From a virus (taxonomy: Duplodnaviria > Heunggongvirae > Uroviricota > Caudoviricetes): a stretch of DNA of 6,381 bases. Below are positions 1-6,381 of the stretch, one piece after another. The stretch lies in IMG/VR virus record IMGVR_UViG_2693429623_000004. The stretch is one strand, 5' to 3'. Position numbers and translations under genes: made by a program. Positions within the stretch are counted from its first letter, which is position 1; every line of letters begins with the position of its first letter. Under the pieces are notes generated by a model. That model ran no database searches and had not been told where the DNA came from. It saw only the letters and a program-made list of their open reading frames with translations.

Positions 1-19
1 AAACCTCGGTTTACAGGAA
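1..19 (+). other. Serine DNA-invertase crossover site (gix/cix/pix/mix type), left half cut by window edge
   Basis: Bases 1-19 read AAACC-TC-GGTTTACAGGAA: partial left half-site, 2-bp core TC, full right half-site. The reverse complement TTCCTGTAAACCGAGGTTT matches the Mu gix 26-bp site as I recall it (from memory, not searched). It lies in frame with the fibre ORF (NLGLQETVN). Confidence 0.75.
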
Positions 20-1030
20 ACGGTAAACAAGGCTGGTAACGCCGTGCAAAAAAATGGCGATACGTTGTCCGGTGGACTTACTTTTGAAAACGACTCAATC
101 CTTGCCTGGATTCGAAATACTGACTGGGCAAAGATTGGGTTTAAAAATAATTCGGATGCAGACACCGATTCCTACATGTGGTTTGAAACAGGCAACAACG
201 GCAATGAATATTTCAAATGGAGACACCGCATCATTGGCACCCGGCCTAAAGACCTGATGAATCTTAAATGGAATGCTTTGTCTGTTCTTGTTGAAGCCCT
301 TTTCAGCAGTGAAGTGAAAATATCGACAGTCAATGCACTGAGGATATTTAATTCATCTTTTGGTGCCATTTTTCGTCGTTCTGAAGAATGCCTGCATATC
401 ATCCCTACACGAGAGAATGAAGGGGAAAATGGTAATATAGGGCCACTACGCCCCTTTACGCTTAATCTCAGAACTGGCCGGATAAGCATGGGGCATGGTC
501 TTGATGTTACAGGGGATATATTTGCAAACCGTTTTGCAATTAACAGTAGTACCGGCATGTGGATTCATATGCGTGACCAGAATGTTATTTTGGGACGTAA
601 TGCGGTATCCACTGATGGTGCTCAGGCTTTGCTCCGTCAGGACCATGCCGACCGCAAATTTATGATTGGCGGTCTGGGAAATAAGCAATTTGGCATCTAC
701 ATGATTAATAACTCAAGGACAGCCAATGGCACCGATGGTCAGGCGTACATGGATAATAACGGGAACTGGCTTTGCGGCTCGCAAGTTATTCCCGGCAACT
801 ATGGCAATTTTGATTCCAGATATGTGAAAGATGTTCGACTTGGTTCACAGCAATATTATGGAGTGAACAACTGGCAAACATGGAATTTTCAGTGCCCGTC
901 AGGCTATGTACTGACGGGGATTAACGTACAGGATACCGGAAAAAACTCTGCCGATAATATTGCAGGCGTTCATTACAGGCCAGTGCAAAAGTATATAAAT
1001 GGCACTTGGTATAATGTGGCGAGTATTTAA
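2..1030 (+). CDS. Tail-fibre protein, variable C-terminal region (cassette A); 5' partial, constant part upstream of window
   Basis: Frame is open from base 2 through the crossover site ([25 protein letters not shown]...); the ORF track starts it at 44, which is a GTG. Stop TAA at 1028-1030. The C-terminus ...GYVLTGIN...[13 protein letters not shown] recurs as a motif in the other cassettes and is followed directly by a tfa gene, the typical fibre-chaperone arrangement. Confidence 0.85.
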
Positions 1031-1031
1031 T

Positions 1032-1559
1032 ATGATGCACTTAAAGAACATAAAAGCAGGTAATGCTAAAACAGTGGAGCAGTATGAGTTAACAAAGAAG
1101 CACGGAGTCATCTGGCTTTACTCTGAGGACGGAAAAAACTGGTATGAGGAAGTGAAGAACTTTCAGCCAGACACAATAAAGATTGTTTACGATGCAAATA
1201 ATATTATTGTCGCCATCACCAAAGATGCCTCCACGCTTAACCCTGAAGGTTATAGCGTCGTTGAGGTTCCTGATATTACAGCTAATCGTCGTGCTGATGA
1301 TTCCGGTAAGTGGATGTTTAAGGACGGAGCTGTGGTTAAACGGATTTATACGGCTGACGAACAGCAACAACAGGCCGAATCACAAAAGGCCGCATTGCTT
1401 TCCGAAGCTGAATCAGTCATCCAGCCGCTGGAACGCGCTGTCAGGCTGAATATGGCGACGGACGAGGAACGCACACGACTGGAAGCATGGGAACGCTACA
1501 GTGTTCTGGTCAGCCGTGTGGATACGGCAAAGCCAGAATGGCCACAAAAGCCTGAGTAA
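1032..1559 (+). CDS. tfa: Tail-fibre assembly chaperone (Tfa family, lambda Tfa / Mu U / e14 TfaE-like), copy 1
   Basis: ATG at 1032 sits 1 nt after the fibre stop (TAATATGATG). The product [11 protein letters not shown]...EWPQKPE is about 175 aa and paralogous to three other ORFs in the window. The ORF-track start at 999 is an upstream in-frame extension that overlaps the fibre. Confidence 0.9.
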
Positions 1560-1575
1560 AAATTAAGGCCCGATA
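1364..1575. repeat. Direct repeat, copy 1 (3' end of tfa1 plus tail through half of the terminator hairpin)
   Basis: Matches 2389-2600 at offset 1025 with only a handful of mismatches by eye (e.g. ggcaaagccagaatgg vs ggcaaatcctgaatgg). Confidence 0.85.
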
Positions 1576-2055
1576 NATCTTTATAAAGATATTGAATCTA
1601 ATGGCAGCAATTTTAGATTAAAAAGTAATTACCGCCACCACATTACATTCGCCAACGAAGACGGAAGAATTCGTATGTTTTTGTGGAAAGATAACGGTGG
1701 TGATGGTGTTCATATTAATAACGGTTCAGATGGTGGTGGTGATTTCATTTTTAAAACAGATGGGGGATTTGCGCTGGGAAGTGGTGCGCAAGTTGCGTCT
1801 AGTGGCGATATTTATGGTTCAGTGTGGGAAAACAACTGGTTAAGCACATGGCTGCATAATCATGTCGTTCGGGATATTCGTCTTGGCAGCATTGAATATA
1901 AAAACGTATGGCGCGACTACGGCTTTGGCGATGCGTCAGGTTATGTTTTAACAGCCGCAATTAACAGCAATGCGGATGATATTGTCGACACTGTTGCCAG
2001 AAGGCCAATTCAGAAATTGATTGGGGGAATATGGTACAACGTGGGGAGTGTTTAA
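1567..2055 (+). CDS. Tail-fibre C-terminal cassette B, 5'-truncated and without a crossover site; possibly silent
   Basis: Frame is open from 1567, immediately after an in-frame TAA at 1564-1566, and reads [45 protein letters not shown]...[38 protein letters not shown]. First in-frame ATG is at 1675 (the ORF-track start). Stop TAA at 2053-2055. No AAACC-NN-GGTTT site lies upstream. Confidence 0.7.
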
Positions 2056-2056
2056 G

Positions 2057-2584
2057 ATGATGCACCTGAAAAATATTAAGGCCGGGAATCCGAAAACACC
2101 GGAACAATACCAGCTAACTAAAAAAGCGGGCGTGGTATGGCTCTTTTGCGAAGATGGCAAAAACTGGTATGAGGAACAAAAGAATTTTCAGCCAGACACC
2201 ATAAAAATTGCTTACGATGAGAACAACATCATCGTTGCTGTCAGTAAAGACGTTTCAACTATTAATCCTGAAGGGCTAAGCATAGTTGAAGTTCCTGATA
2301 TTACGGCAAATCGTCACGCAGACAATAACGGAAAATGGATGTTTCTGGATGGTAAAGTAGTAAAGAGGGAATATACAGAACAGGAACTGCAACAACAGGC
2401 CGAATCACAAAAGGCCGCATTGCTTTCCGAAGCTGAATCAGTCATCCAGCCGCTGGAACGCGCTGTCAGGCTGAATATGGCGACGGACGAGGAACGCACA
2501 CGACTGGAAGCATGGGAACGCTACAGTGTTCTGGTCAGCCGTGTGGATACGGCAAATCCTGAATGGCCACAAAAGCCTGAATAA
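2057..2584 (+). CDS. tfa: Tail-fibre assembly chaperone (Tfa family), copy 2
   Basis: ATGATG at 2057 follows the cassette B stop by 1 nt. Product [23 protein letters not shown]...EWPQKPE. The ORF-track start at 2021 is an upstream extension. Confidence 0.9.
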
Positions 2585-2600
2585 AAATTAAGGCCCGATA
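2389..2600. repeat. Direct repeat, copy 2 (3' end of tfa2 plus tail)
   Basis: Near-identical to 1364-1575. Confidence 0.85.
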
Positions 2601-2609
2601 GCGGGCCTT
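2590..2609. terminator. Palindromic hairpin between convergent tfa2 and tfa3; likely intrinsic terminator
   Basis: AAGGCCCG-ATAG-CGGGCCTT is an 8-bp GC-rich stem with a 4-nt loop. On the - strand it is followed by AATTTTTAT. The A-run before it on the + strand gives a U-tract for transcripts reading in the - direction. Confidence 0.7.
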
Positions 2610-2960
2610 CTCTCATTCTGGTTGTTCGGGAAACGTTACTGGCAGGCTGGAGGTGTCTGTGGATTCAACCTTCTGCGCATAGAGCATCCACTCGGTTAAT
2701 TTTTGTTTATTCTCATCGGAAATGATGCCCAGCTGTAGCTGAGAGTCCCACAGCTGGGTTTTATCCCTGACGAGCTGCAGCAGGCTCTGCTTTTCATTTT
2801 CCGCTTGTTGCCTTTGCTCTTCCTCGGTATAAGTTCGCTTTATCACCGCACCATCTTTGAACATCCAGTTGCCCGAAATATCAGCCCGGCGATTTGCTGT
2901 AATATCAGGCAACTCAACGACACTTAAACCTTCTGGATTAATTGCTGATACATCCTTGTC
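2590..2960. repeat. Direct repeat, copy 1 (hairpin plus 3' part of tfa3)
   Basis: Matches 3580-3950 at constant offset 990 with scattered point mismatches by eye; similarity drops toward the 5' halves of the genes. Confidence 0.8.
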
Positions 2961-3146
2961 TATAGCAATAATTATTCCCTCAACTGTGTAAGCCAGTTTT
3001 ATTGTATCCTCCTGAAAGTTTTTTAATTCCTCATGCCAATTTTTTCCATCTTCGGACCATAACCAGATAACATCAAAATTCTTTGTTAGCTGGTATTGTT
3101 CAACGGTTTTTGGATTACCTGCGACAATGTTTTTTAAATGCTGCAT
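2613..3146 (-). CDS. tfa: Tail-fibre assembly chaperone (Tfa family), copy 3
   Basis: Product [30 protein letters not shown]...[11 protein letters not shown]. The N-terminal part is conserved with copies 1 and 2; the C-terminal part belongs to the second class shared with copy 4. ATG at 3146 sits 2 nt after the stop of fibre fragment C. Confidence 0.9.
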
Positions 3147-3148
3147 GA

Positions 3149-3568
3149 TTATACCTGCGATACGTTATACCATGTTCCGTTAATTAACTTTTGTATTGGT
3201 CTGAATACTGCCGGATCATCACCATCGACTTCACCGATAATACCAAGCCCCGTGATTACATGGCCTGATTTTTCATACATCACGCCTTTCTTCATGGTCT
3301 AAACAACTCGTGTGCCAAGTCTGACATCTCTCACATAGCGGGAATCAAAGTTACCGTAATCCGAGGGATTAACACGTCCCGTAATATTTATGGTTTTATT
3401 ACTTTGAATGCTTCCGGAGACAAAGCGCATAACATGGACGTTATTAGCATAAACATCCAGATTACCATCGCCTTTTTGTTTAAAGCCCGTGTCATTATCA
3501 CCCAATACAATCGAATTACCGCCAAGAGCACTGGATGTTCCGATACCCAGTGCACCAACATCTCCTGC
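3149..3568 (-). pseudogene. Tail-fibre C-terminal cassette C: 5'-truncated, no crossover site, interrupted by an in-frame TAG
   Basis: The - strand reads [89 protein letters not shown], then TAG (3299-3301), then in the same frame [49 protein letters not shown] and TAA (3149-3151). Region 3362-3568 duplicates 5176-5415 of cassette E apart from a 33-bp deletion. The 5' end runs into the N-run at 3569-3579. Confidence 0.7.
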
Positions 3569-3579
3569 NNNNNNNNNNN

Positions 3580-3599
3580 AAGGCCCGATATCGGGCCTT
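3580..3599. terminator. Second copy of the palindromic hairpin, downstream of tfa4 on the - strand
   Basis: AAGGCCCG-ATAT-CGGGCCTT. It is the same stem as 2590-2609 and is flanked on one side by the 11-nt N-run. Confidence 0.6.
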
Positions 3600-3950
3600 G
3601 TTTCATTCTGGTTGTTCGGGAAACGTTACTGGCAGGCTGGAGGTGTCTGTGGATTCGACCTTCTGCGCATAGAGCATCCACTCGGTTAATTTTTGTTTAT
3701 TCTCGTCGGAAATAATGCCCAGCCGTAGCTGTGAGTCCCATAGCTGGGTTTTATCCCTGACGAGCTGTAGCAGGCTTTGCTTTTCATTTTCCGCTTGTTG
3801 CCTCTGCTCTTCCCCGGTATAAGTTCGCTTTATCACTACGCCATCTTTGAACATCCATTTACCTGAAATATCAGCCCGGCGATTTGCTGTAATATCAGGA
3901 ACCTCAACGACGCTTGCGCCTTCCGGATTAATTGCTGAAACATCCTTTTC
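3580..3950. repeat. Direct repeat, copy 2 (hairpin plus 3' part of tfa4)
   Basis: Partner of 2590-2960. Confidence 0.8.
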
Positions 3951-4136
3951 AATACAAATAATAACGCCGTTGTGGTCATAGACCATTTTCAACGTATCAG
4001 GCTGAAAGTTCTTTTGTTCCTCATACCAGTTTTTCCCATCCTCTGTATAAAGCCATTTGATGTTAAATTGTTTCGTTAGCTGGTATTGCTCTTTTGTTTC
4101 AGGATTACCAGCAGAAATGTTTTTTAAGTGCATCAT
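3603..4136 (-). CDS. tfa: Tail-fibre assembly chaperone (Tfa family), copy 4
   Basis: Product [40 protein letters not shown]...[17 protein letters not shown] at 4136 sits 2 nt after the cassette D stop (TAA 4139-4141). Confidence 0.9.
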   Translation of the reverse strand: MMHLKNISAGNPETKEQYQLTKQFNIKWLYTEDGKNWYEEQKNFQPDTLKMVYDHNGVIICIEKDVSAINPEGASVVEVPDITANRRADISGKWMFKDGVVIKRTYTGEEQRQQAENEKQSLLQLVRDKTQLWDSQLRLGIISDENKQKLTEWMLYAQKVESTDTSSLPVTFPEQPE

Positions 4137-4138
4137 CG

Positions 4139-5090
4139 TTAAATACTCCCCGCGTTATACCACGTCCCATTAATGCAATACTGAATTGGCCTTGCCTGAG
4201 TTGTATCAATTAGTTCATCTCTGTTTGAGTTAACGGAACCGGTAACAACATAACCTGACCTGTCAGACCATCCGGGACCATTCCATGTCTGAACAGATAA
4301 CAGACCACCAAGGCGAATACCTGTAATAAACCTTGAGTTACATTCTGCCTGCGTATATGCACCAACATCTCCCGCAGAGGGTTTGCGGGTTGTGGTGTAA
4401 AACTCTGACCAGTCAGCTTCAAAGCCATAACCATCACGCGCTGAACGATAAAAAATACCGCCGTTCCTGTAATTCACGCGGAACTGTACAGCAGGGCAGC
4501 TCCCCGTATTCATATTGAAGTGGAGGATTAATGTCGATGCGCCACCAATGTTTGCGTTATAGACCCCGCTATTCCAGTTCCAGCCAACAGCTTTATCATT
4601 TCCGACAGTGCTTCCTGTTTGCCCTAAAGCAAATGCAGGTTGTTGATTTTTCGTGTTGTAGTCTCGTCGCCAGCCAGGAGCGTAAGCATCACCATGATTA
4701 ATATAAGTGAATTGAGCGTTAGTAATTCCGCCACCGCTGGACGTGCTCGGCGTGGTAACGCGTATGGTCATTGCGCCGCGAGTGCCAATAACTTCCACCA
4801 CAGCACCTGCAAGACAAATATTTCCGCAACCTGTATCTGTAATGACCTTATTATTTGCATAAGCCCATGAGCCTTTGCACATCCAGTAAGGATGGTTAAA
4901 TGCTCCCTGACTCTCCAGCCACGAAATAAATTGCGCGGTTGTCCAGACCTGACTATCGCCACCAATATTCAGCCATGAGCTATATGCGCGGCAGGCACCA
5001 ATATTTTTGGTGAAGGTATCTTTCCCCGGAATATCTGCGCCGTTCTGGTTTTTCTGTAATGCGCCAGAAGCCTGATTTACCGTTTCCTGT
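4139..5090 (-). CDS. Tail-fibre variable C-terminal region (cassette D), alternative to cassette A; 5' end runs into crossover site and N-run
   Basis: The ORF-track entry 4139..4882 stays open upstream to 5090 in the same frame: ...QETVNQASGALQKNQNGADIPGKDTFTKNIGACRAYSSWLNIGGDSQVWTTAQFISWLESQGAFNHPYWMCKGSWAYANN... It begins with the same QETVN encoded by site 1 and ends ...GYVVTGSVNSNRDELIDTTQARPIQYCINGTWYNAGSI. Confidence 0.85.
4357..4640. repeat. Diverged direct repeat, copy 1 (shared fibre module in cassette D)
   Basis: Aligns with about 5397-5680 in cassette E at roughly 80-85% identity by eye. It encodes AFALGxTGSTVxNDKAVGWNW...GSCPAxQFRxNYxNGGIFYRSARDGYGFEADWSEFYTT..RKPSAGDVGA. Confidence 0.7.
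5084..5090 (-). other. Crossover site, visible edge only (TTCCTGT...), remainder masked by N-run 5091-5175
   Basis: Bases 5071-5090 (CCTGATTTACCGTTTCCTGT) match the reverse complement of window bases 11-32 apart from a few substitutions; the remainder AAACC-GA-GGTTT... is predicted inside the Ns. Orientation is inverted relative to site 1. Confidence 0.65.
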
Positions 5091-5175
5091 NNNNNNNNNN
5101 NNNNNNNNNNNNNNNNNNNNNNNNNNNNNNNNNNNNNNNNNNNNNNNNNNNNNNNNNNNNNNNNNNNNNNNNNNN

Positions 5176-5888
5176 CGAGGGATTAACACGTCCCGTAATA
5201 TTTATGGTTTTATTACTTTGAATGCTTCCGGAGACAAAGCGCATAACATGGACGTTATTAGCATAAACATCCAGATTACCATCGCCTTTTTGTTTAAAGC
5301 CCGTGTCATTATCACCCAATACAATCGAATTACCGCCAAGAGCACTGGATGTTCCGATACCCAGTGCACCATTCAGTTGACCACCAGATAACGGCAGTGC
5401 ACCAACATCTCCTGCTGAAGGTTTTCTGGTGGTGTAAAATTCGGACCAGTCGGCTTCAAAACCATAACCATCACGGGCTGAACGATAAAAAATACCGCCA
5501 TTTTTATAATTAATCCGAAACTGAGCTGCAGGACAACTTCCTTCTCCCATATAAAAATGAATAATTAACGTTGATGCACCACTAATAGTTGCGTTATAGG
5601 CTCCGCTACTCCAGTTCCATCCAACTGCTTTATCATTCGCAACGGTGCTTCCTGTTTTCCCTAAGGCAAACGCACCAACATGACTTGCTTTTAATGTGAT
5701 ATCGGAGGAACCATCAAAAGCCACATTGCTTATTTTCCTGGCAGTTTTTAATTTTGCAGCTGTAGAAGCATTGCCGGATAGTTCACCAGAAAGGCCACCG
5801 CTGAATGTTTGTCGATTAGTCCAGGTATTCGCTGTACTGAGTAACGGTATTTTCTCCCCGCTTGTGCCGAGTTCTCGTAAACCGAGGT
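5176..5888 (-). CDS. Tail-fibre variable region (cassette E), third alternative; both ends in N-runs
   Basis: The - strand reads LGLRELGTSGEKIPLLSTANTWTNRQTFSGG...AFALGKTGSTVANDKAVGWNW...GYGFEADWSEFYTTRKPSAGDVGALPLSGGQLNGALGIGTSS...NKTINITGRVNPS. The 5' LGL is encoded by the crossover site at 5872-5888. The central block is shared with cassette D. Confidence 0.8.
5397..5680. repeat. Diverged direct repeat, copy 2 (shared fibre module in cassette E)
   Basis: Partner of 4357-4640. Confidence 0.7.
5872..5888 (-). other. Crossover site: TTCTCGTAAACC-GA-GGT then Ns
   Basis: A full left half-site TTCTCGTAAACC, core GA and the start of the right half-site are visible before the N-run. Orientation is the same as the 5084 site and inverted relative to site 1. 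It lies in frame with cassette E. Confidence 0.7.
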
Positions 5889-6300
5889 NNNNNNNNNNNN
5901 NNNNNNNNNNNNNNNNNNNNNNNNNNNNNNNNNNNNNNNNNNNNNNNNNNNNNNNNNNNNNNNNNNNNNNNNNNNNNNNNNNNNNNNNNNNNNNNNNNNN
6001 NNNNNNNNNNNNNNNNNNNNNNNNNNNNNNNNNNNNNNNNNNNNNNNNNNNNNNNNNNNNNNNNNNNNNNNNNNNNNNNNNNNNNNNNNNNNNNNNNNNN
6101 NNNNNNNNNNNNNNNNNNNNNNNNNNNNNNNNNNNNNNNNNNNNNNNNNNNNNNNNNNNNNNNNNNNNNNNNNNNNNNNNNNNNNNNNNNNNNNNNNNNN
6201 NNNNNNNNNNNNNNNNNNNNNNNNNNNNNNNNNNNNNNNNNNNNNNNNNNNNNNNNNNNNNNNNNNNNNNNNNNNNNNNNNNNNNNNNNNNNNNNNNNNN

Positions 6301-6381
6301 GTCACTGTATGCGGCATCTTGTCGTGCTGGTGGTGGAAGCCTAGAAAAAGTATCGGGTGTTGCTGAACCGTGTTGATACAT
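6301..6381 (-). CDS. Partial ORF of unknown identity reaching the right window edge
   Basis: Only 27 codons are visible (MYQHGSATPDTFSRLPPPARQDAAYSD) before the 412-nt N-run. The ATG at the window edge may be coincidental and the frame may continue beyond the window. Its relation to the fibre cassettes cannot be decided. Confidence 0.2.

Follow-up and report, generated by a model that had tools for sequence, protein, structure and literature searches.

Does one invertible tail-fibre region, with several crossover sites and alternative cassettes in tandem, fill the stretch of DNA analysed here, or do parts of more than one such region meet in it? The stretch, IMG/VR virus record IMGVR_UViG_2693429623_000004 (6,381 bases, called the window below and probably the whole record), holds fibre cassettes, tail fibre assembly (tfa) genes and partial crossover sites of the gix type. 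A reading of its letters, hereafter the original prediction, had described it as a single multi-site switch resembling the Min system of plasmid p15B or a shufflon. Our comparison with related loci makes it very likely instead that the window is a draft-assembly scaffold braiding contigs from two invertible tail-fibre loci of one E. coli-type enterobacterial genome. One of these, locus Y, appears from its sequence to be a classical two-site switch of the Gin/Pin type in a P2-like prophage, and the other, locus X, would be an equivalent two-site switch, acting on the side tail fibre in a lambdoid prophage that lies at ompW/trp.

Pieces of the window and their joins

The window consists of five pieces of sequence with nothing but N between them (1, 11, 85 and 412 N), and its transitions between cassette groups all fall in such runs (1576, 3569-3579, 5091-5175 and 5889-6300), which removes the premise of one contiguous DNA on which the original prediction tacitly relied. 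The pieces and joins, with the locus to which each is assigned, are as follows.

1-1575: piece p1, with a partial site, cassette A and tfa1; locus Y
1576: single n, scaffold join between p1 and p2
1577-3568: piece p2, with the tip of cassette B, tfa2, tfa3 (minus strand) and a fibre tip (minus strand); locus X
3569-3579: 11 N, scaffold join from locus X (p2) to locus Y (p3)
3580-5090: piece p3, with tfa4 (minus strand) and cassette D (minus strand), ending in 7 nucleotides (nt) of a site; locus Y
5091-5175: 85 N, scaffold join from locus Y (site of cassette D) to locus X (middle of cassette E)
5176-5888: piece p4, with the N-terminal part of cassette E (minus strand) and a partial site; locus X
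5889-6300: 412 N, gap between p4 and p5
6301-6381: piece p5, flank of locus X

Two internal overlaps indicate how these pieces belong together. The last 11 nt of p1 (1565-1575, AAGGCCCGATA, half of a terminator hairpin) are also the first 11 nt of p3 (3580-3590), and 196 nt near the end of p2 (3362-3557) recur at 100% identity as the beginning of p4 (5176-5371), so that each piece continues into the next but one. The related loci that we fetched, referred to by L numbers, contain just these continuations. In the IMG/VR contigs L017, L018 and L023, p1 and p3 are directly contiguous, N-free and 100% identical, forming a 3,075-nt segment; the junction between them is present in L011, L012 and L016 as well as in these three, and the same adjacency is found in Mu, SfMu, P1, P7 and the matching complete E. 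coli genomes. The other pieces behave likewise: p2 (99.8%) and p4 (100%) are contiguous in L005, L007, L009 and L010, where the 196-nt stretch is present once, and p5 (100%) follows p4 in L007, L009 and L010. Because p1 plus p3 and p2 plus p4 plus p5 are thus contiguous in separate contigs of relatives, the window would not be one locus. Furthermore, one IMG genome includes both L023, which has locus Y, and L009, which has locus X, as distinct contigs; a close relative therefore carries both loci separately.

Among 5,426 complete E. coli genomes, 72,556 plasmids and 50,697 phage records, no place covers at least 80% of the window; the best cover there is 66-69%, essentially p1 plus p3. The junctions that the window implies (terminator of tfa1 to the middle of B, tip of E to the terminator of tfa4, and site of D to the middle of E) occur in none of the fetched related loci.

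The probable cause of the tangle is a 168-nt exact direct repeat, by which the 3' end of tfa1 (1364-1531) equals 2389-2556 in tfa2, since a repeat of this kind would tangle a short-read assembly graph. The 5' parts of the two genes are only about 72% identical, and the shared 3' end points to an exchange of modules, or to gene conversion, involving assembly-protein genes of two prophages. To this tangle would be added the 3' ends and terminators of tfa3 and tfa4, which are 94% identical, and the crossover site of A and B together with the 45 nt that follow, the first 45 nt of the window (the start of cassette A) being identical to the start of cassette B in relatives. Short-read contigs would thus have broken at shared exact repeats, and a scaffolder or gap-closer would have interleaved the pieces of the two loci, so that the third site and the extra cassettes would owe their position to juxtaposition. 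The terminators in question are presumably bidirectional: GC-rich perfect hairpins lie between the convergent tfa genes at 2590-2609 and 3580-3599 (AAGGCCCGATAGCGGGCCTT, AAGGCCCGATATCGGGCCTT), the second preceding tfa4. Elsewhere, P2-like prophage sequence is joined to the lambdoid locus through a single N at shared sites or repeats in L009 (5233 and 10309) and in L011 (3141), and these joins are of the same chimeric class as those of the window.

The two switch loci

Locus Y, reassembled from p1 and p3, contributes these features to the window.

1..19, plus strand: partial crossover site 1, with AAACC (outer 5 nt), core TC at 6-7 and inner half-site GGTTTACAGGAA
2..1030, plus strand: cassette A, an Sv-type variable C-terminal fibre part; an open frame matching the S variable part of Mu and SfMu
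1032..1559, plus strand: tfa1, a U-type tail fibre assembly protein (Pfam Caudo_TAP, E 2.5e-37)
1565..1576, no strand: half of the inter-tfa terminator hairpin, then the single n of the scaffold join
3603..4136, minus strand: tfa4, a U'-type tail fibre assembly protein (Pfam Caudo_TAP), 100% identical in L017, L018 and L023
4139..5090, minus strand: cassette D, an S'v-type variable fibre part, with the opening 7 nt of its crossover site at 5084-5090
5084-5090, minus strand: partial site of cassette D, 7 nt (TTCCTGT) of the inner half-site ahead of the N-run

Cassette A is 100% identical in L011, L017, L023 and L018 (in L018 from window position 201). The inner half-site of site 1 is complete at 12 nt, and its outer half-site is present for only 5 nt. 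A coding flank, ACAGGAAACGGTAAA, is repeated in inverted orientation at 13-27 (plus) and 5076-5090 (minus), against 0 such repeats expected, and in the 100%-identical contigs a full crossover site follows position 5090, placing the core dinucleotide of the D site by homology at about 5096-5097. The third partial site, site E of locus X, is linked to the first by a 17-nt sequence, ACCTCGGTTTACRRGAA, which has exactly two copies, inverted, at 3-19 (plus) and 5872-5888 (minus), versus 0 in 200 shuffles. Open frames run through all three, as NLGLQETVN.. at site 1 (plus), QETVNQ.. at the D site (minus) and LGLRELG.. at site E (minus). The original prediction had put inverted sites inside fibre frames at 1-19, about 5084 and 5872, with breakpoints at 6-7, about 5096 and 5884-5885, and in this it was right: letters, shuffles and open frames agree, and the core dinucleotides lie at those positions.

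In every related locus that we examined, the outer half-site on the side of the constant fibre region (..IEYLGL) reads ATACC and the one on the other, or invertase, side reads AAACC. Since the outer half of site 1 is of the AAACC type, which is not that of the constant side, cassette A is probably the silent cassette in the window, and in L017 and L023, which match at 100%, it is D that the constant region is joined to; A with tfa1 had been taken for the expressed combination, and these two observations speak against it. Synteny links L017 to the P2-like baseplate V/W/J/I-H region of L001, and the 656-amino acid fibre open reading frame (ORF) of L017 passes in frame from a P2-like H constant region (..VIEYLGL) through the site into D. 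When assemblies of Y-type loci are compared, L017 and L023 have D on the side of the constant region and L020 has it on that of the invertase. An intact 195-amino acid serine invertase (Resolvase plus HTH_7) adjoins the P2-like locus at L009 4542-5126, and also in L001 and L002. At locus Y, a serine invertase would recombine two inverted 26-bp gix-type sites, each of two 12-bp half-sites around a 2-bp core, at their central dinucleotide (TC/GA), joining the constant fibre N-terminus (..IEYLGL) either to A, with tfa1, or to D, with tfa4. At either locus, the outer half-sites stay with their flanks on inversion, as the ATACC/AAACC pattern shows, and the ORFs show the constant 5' part becoming joined to either of two alternative 3' parts, which are co-transcribed with separate assembly proteins. 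Flipping of the DNA between site 1 and the site near 5090, which had been proposed, would accordingly be the classical inversion of a G segment, swapping A and tfa1 for D and tfa4; the companion proposal of inversion between site 1 and site E falls, as site E belongs to a different locus.

Complete inverted site pairs are present in L007, L009 and L010 for locus X and in L017 for locus Y, the outer arm on the A side of the latter being replaced by the end of an IS600 element. The 62 nt outside site 1 in L017 (7236-7297) are the IS600 terminal inverted repeat, standing in place of the usual outer arm (TTATCTA). The switch may thus be locked in L017 with D expressed, and the IS600 end outside site 1 may be the reason why several contigs, including the window, stop there. 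Inversion heterogeneity as the source of the contig break at site 1 was rejected, the flank in L017 being the end of IS600, and a further IS600 match checked for this flank turned out to be an unrelated IS600 copy only.

Locus X, reassembled from p2, p4 and p5, accounts for the remaining features.

1577..2055, plus strand: tip of cassette B, starting in mid-ORF (Pfam gp37_trimer)
2057..2584, plus strand: tfa2 (Pfam Caudo_TAP, E 7.9e-37), contiguous with B and tfa3 in L005-L007, L009 and L010
2613..3146, minus strand: tfa3 (Pfam Caudo_TAP)
3149..3568, minus strand: C-terminal tip of cassette E (cassette C of the original prediction), with an amber codon at 3299-3301 and with 3362-3557 equal to 5176-5371
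5176..5888, minus strand: N-terminal part of cassette E and partial site, 100% identical in L005, L007, L009 and L010
5872-5888, minus strand: partial crossover site E, reading ACCTCGGTTTACGAGAA, with inner half TTCTCGTAAACC, core GA at 5884-5885, then GGT
6301..6381, no strand: flank p5, non-functional, with the invertase remnant on one side and a SAM methyltransferase gene on the other

The fibre parts of the window match gp37-type domains in Pfam, and its four tfa ORFs, all Caudo_TAP, form convergent pairs. In related contigs locus X has the order constant region, site, B, tfa2, tfa3 (minus), E (minus), site, invertase remnant, p5 and SAM methyltransferase gene, and in L007 and L010 it is syntenic with the lambdoid J-lom-stf region of E. 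coli NCTC86 (L003), whose neighbours are the trp operon and a disrupted ompW. Cassette B lacks its N-terminal part and its crossover site in the window; the full B ORF and site are found at L009 6387-7293. The N-terminal part of E runs straight into the tip at 3361..3149 in L005, L007, L009 and L010. A separate cassette C at 3149-3568 was accordingly rejected, this stretch being the tip of E in four contigs: the supposed cassettes C and E are overlapping parts of one cassette, and the supposed tandem of D and E is a juxtaposition across 85 N. The third site (5872-5888) thus goes, together with what were called cassettes B, C and E, to a prophage locus other than that of site 1.

Of the outer half of site E, 3 nt remain ahead of the N-run. 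The interval between p4 and p5, 412 N in the window, is 262 nt in relatives (L007, L010 and NCTC86; L009), where it contains the outer half-site completing the site and a serine-invertase gene cut to its first 66 codons (L009 6143-6343; NCTC86 10904-11083; Pfam Resolvase, E 4e-15), which the NCTC86 annotation calls an incomplete recombinase. Both orientations of the locus are nevertheless found when N-free segments of assemblies are compared, E adjoining the remnant in L007 and L010 and B adjoining it in L009, and in L010 the constant region and B form a 932-amino acid in-frame ORF. The original prediction had made its case depend on an invertase gene in the flanks and on inversion isomers. 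Relatives supply both in part: the invertase is intact at one locus and truncated at the other, and locus X occurs in both orientations.

The lambdoid locus has kept both sites, and both of its orientations, despite the truncation of its own invertase, a state consistent with flipping in trans by the invertase of a co-resident P2-like prophage. With its own invertase cut to 66 codons, locus X would need such a co-resident enzyme, and a trans activity would be in keeping with the cross-activity of Gin, Cin, Pin and Hin. These invertases act on each other's sites, a cross-activity reportedly described by Kutsukake and Iino in 1980 (cited in PMC5903667). The 5' end of the coding sequence of gin, cin and hin houses the Fis-dependent recombinational enhancer; the corresponding region is N in the window. 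The 66-codon remnant of relatives keeps the first ~200 nt of the gene and with them the span of the enhancer in those three genes, which could be relevant to flipping in trans.

Locus X appears to be partly decayed, since cassette E carries an amber codon in some relatives and CAG in others. The codon (3299-3301, minus strand, TAG for CAG) lies about 50 codons ahead of the end of the cassette; it is common to L005, L009 and L010, and CAG stands in L006, L007 and NCTC86. This distribution marks it as a genuine polymorphism, by which the receptor-binding tip is cut short in some strains. In NCTC86, the same E-type N-terminal part is found on both cassettes (7869-8584 and 10125-10840) as a 716-nt inverted repeat, and the tips differ. 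The cassettes thus appear to be mosaics of N-terminal part and tip that reassort.

Three further observations concern the ends of locus X pieces. The last 11 nt of p2 (3558-3568, ACATCTCCTGC) skip 33 nt (11 codons, LPLSGGQLNGA) relative to p4 and all relatives, and the skip falls between two CAGTGCACCA decamers; no other locus has this variant, and its 26-mer is absent from the viral and genome contig collections. The 81 nt of p5 overlap, in the NCTC86 annotation, a fragment of a tail-fibre-assembly gene, and an ATG-led minus-strand ORF from 6381 (MYQHGSATPDTF..), considered as a candidate for the fibre constant region continuing across the N-run into cassette E, was rejected as spurious, these 81 nt being junk flank past a truncated invertase in NCTC86 and L009. 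Finally, the window and L007 end at exactly the same base, which suggests a repeat boundary.

Weighing the alternatives

The reading of the window as two braided two-site switches has points against it. The artefact is deduced from relatives, not from the source reads or the rest of the assembly, and the order chosen by the scaffolder presumably rested on some read pairs. A 32-mer of cassette B had no match among genome contigs, and in viral and metagenome contigs it matched relatives, not the source record. The variant end of p2 could be a gap-closer error, but it could also be a private in-frame deletion or a real second allele. Cassettes also reassort between loci, B-like tips being paired with D-like cassettes in L002 and L011, for example, and true multi-site regions exist, among them Min of p15B. 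These points have to be set against three other accounts of the same letters.

It is very unlikely that the N-runs are deliberate masks over contiguous sequence and that the window, instead of a working multi-site switch, is a decayed fibre-gene mosaic downstream of a G-type segment. Decay can indeed be seen in locus X, in the amber codon of E and the truncated invertase, and regions of the P1 and p15B type reportedly contain partial duplicated fibre fragments (Sandmeier et al. 1992). The N-runs themselves speak against masking: the 412 N stand for exactly 262 nt in L007, L010 and NCTC86, so that N length does not track sequence, and the runs of 1 N and 11 N are too short for a 26-bp site. The 11- and 196-nt overlaps of alternate pieces are, moreover, the signature of unmerged contig ends, and sister IMG scaffolds have single-N joins at the same repeats.

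We consider it highly improbable that the order in the window is real and that it represents, as originally predicted, one Min-like region with five cassettes, at least three crossover sites and one invertase. Three partial gix-type sites in inverted orientation do lie within 6 kb, in company with four tfa genes and five fibre fragments, and multi-site systems of the same recombinase family are known (p15B Min, cited in PMC5903667). However, each junction that such a region needs is an N-run; B would be a cassette without a site, starting in mid-ORF one base past half a terminator; 196 nt of E would recur in C, itself a fragment; and the pieces re-pair perfectly into two loci that are intact elsewhere. 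Cover of at least 80% of the window was found nowhere among the complete genomes, plasmids and phage records searched. A particular form of genuine order, a chromosomal Min-like region in which a G-type segment has received a lambdoid B/E module between its convergent tfa genes and a further E lies beyond the D site, is just as hard to credit. What stands of the original prediction is therefore an invertible fibre switch, with Gin/Cin/Pin-type sites inside fibre frames; what does not is its unity as a single Min-like or shufflon-like region.

Least credible of all is that the two loci are separate but that an invertase recombines sites between the prophages in culture, yielding large chromosomal inversions and hybrid read pairs that misled the scaffolder: the sites of X and Y do share a 12-bp core region, A and B share 45 further nt, and invertases of this family are known to act on each other's sites, but the joins at 1576 and 3569-3579 lie in terminators or mid-ORF, outside crossover sites, and hence cannot be explained by site-specific recombination, and plain 168-nt repeats suffice.

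The braiding of two two-site switches into one scaffold, very probable here, carries a caution for the study of such regions. Where prophages reside together, their invertible fibre regions have extended exact repeats in common (3' ends of tfa genes, terminators and sites), and for this reason short-read scaffolds can braid two two-site switches into an apparent multi-site shufflon.

Comparison with known invertible systems

The R64 shufflon, to which the window had been likened, uses the tyrosine recombinase Rci, sfx sites and the adhesin gene pilV. The likeness consists in several alternative C-terminal cassettes for one surface protein; unlike the shufflon, the loci described here have gix-type sites, serine recombinases in relatives (Pfam Resolvase) and phage fibre cassettes with tfa genes. 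Min of p15B (Sandmeier et al. 1990) reportedly has a Pin-like serine invertase, gix-like sites in fibre frames and several alternative 3' ends. Its six sites and overlapping invertible segments belong to a single region of verified contiguity. In the window, unlike in Min, contiguity of more than two sites rests on N-joins only and is contradicted by relatives: the sites are linked through N-runs, and the two loci lie in different prophages.

Locus X has its nearest counterpart in the lambdoid ompW/trp segment of NCTC86, which is also present in many draft genomes and corresponds to p2, p4 and p5, with the same flank, the same truncated recombinase and an E-type N-terminal part. Identity of these pieces is 92-100% to NCTC86 and 99.8-100% to L005, L007, L009 and L010. 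Unlike locus X as seen in the window, NCTC86 has E-type N-terminal parts on both cassettes and an A-like tip in place of the B tip.

Locus Y shares recombinase family, site type and cassette layout with the C segment of P1 and P7 (Cin) and the P segment of e14 (Pin), and the C segments of P1, P7 and D6 match p1 plus p3 at 86-89%. It differs from P1, P7 and e14 in replicon and constant region, and nothing specific to P1 occurs in the window. The closest system is the G segment of Mu with its invertase Gin (also SfMu and D108): p1 plus p3 align end to end with the whole 3-kb Sv-U / U'-S'v segment, the identity being 89% with Mu and 92% with SfMu, window positions 1 and 5090 fall on the annotated boundaries of the G segment, and site 1 reads exactly as the Mu gix sequence AAACCTCGGTTTACAGGAA. 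The logic is that of Mu G as well, a constant N-terminal fibre part being combined with either of two C-terminal parts, and a separate assembly protein going with each. Unlike Mu, the 100%-identical contigs place this segment in a P2-like prophage, with an H-like constant region (..IEYLGL) and ATACC instead of AAACC. The invertase is seen in relatives only, the window ending at site 1 and having 412 N beyond site E. The hallmarks of a Gin/Cin/Pin-type switch that we did find are the inverted site pair, the layout with its in-frame fusion and, among assemblies, both orientations. Inversion of the fibre segments of Mu and P1 changes host range, and such switching of host range through Gin/Pin-type inversion, which is the biology underlying the two switches braided in the window, has been recognised since the 1980s.

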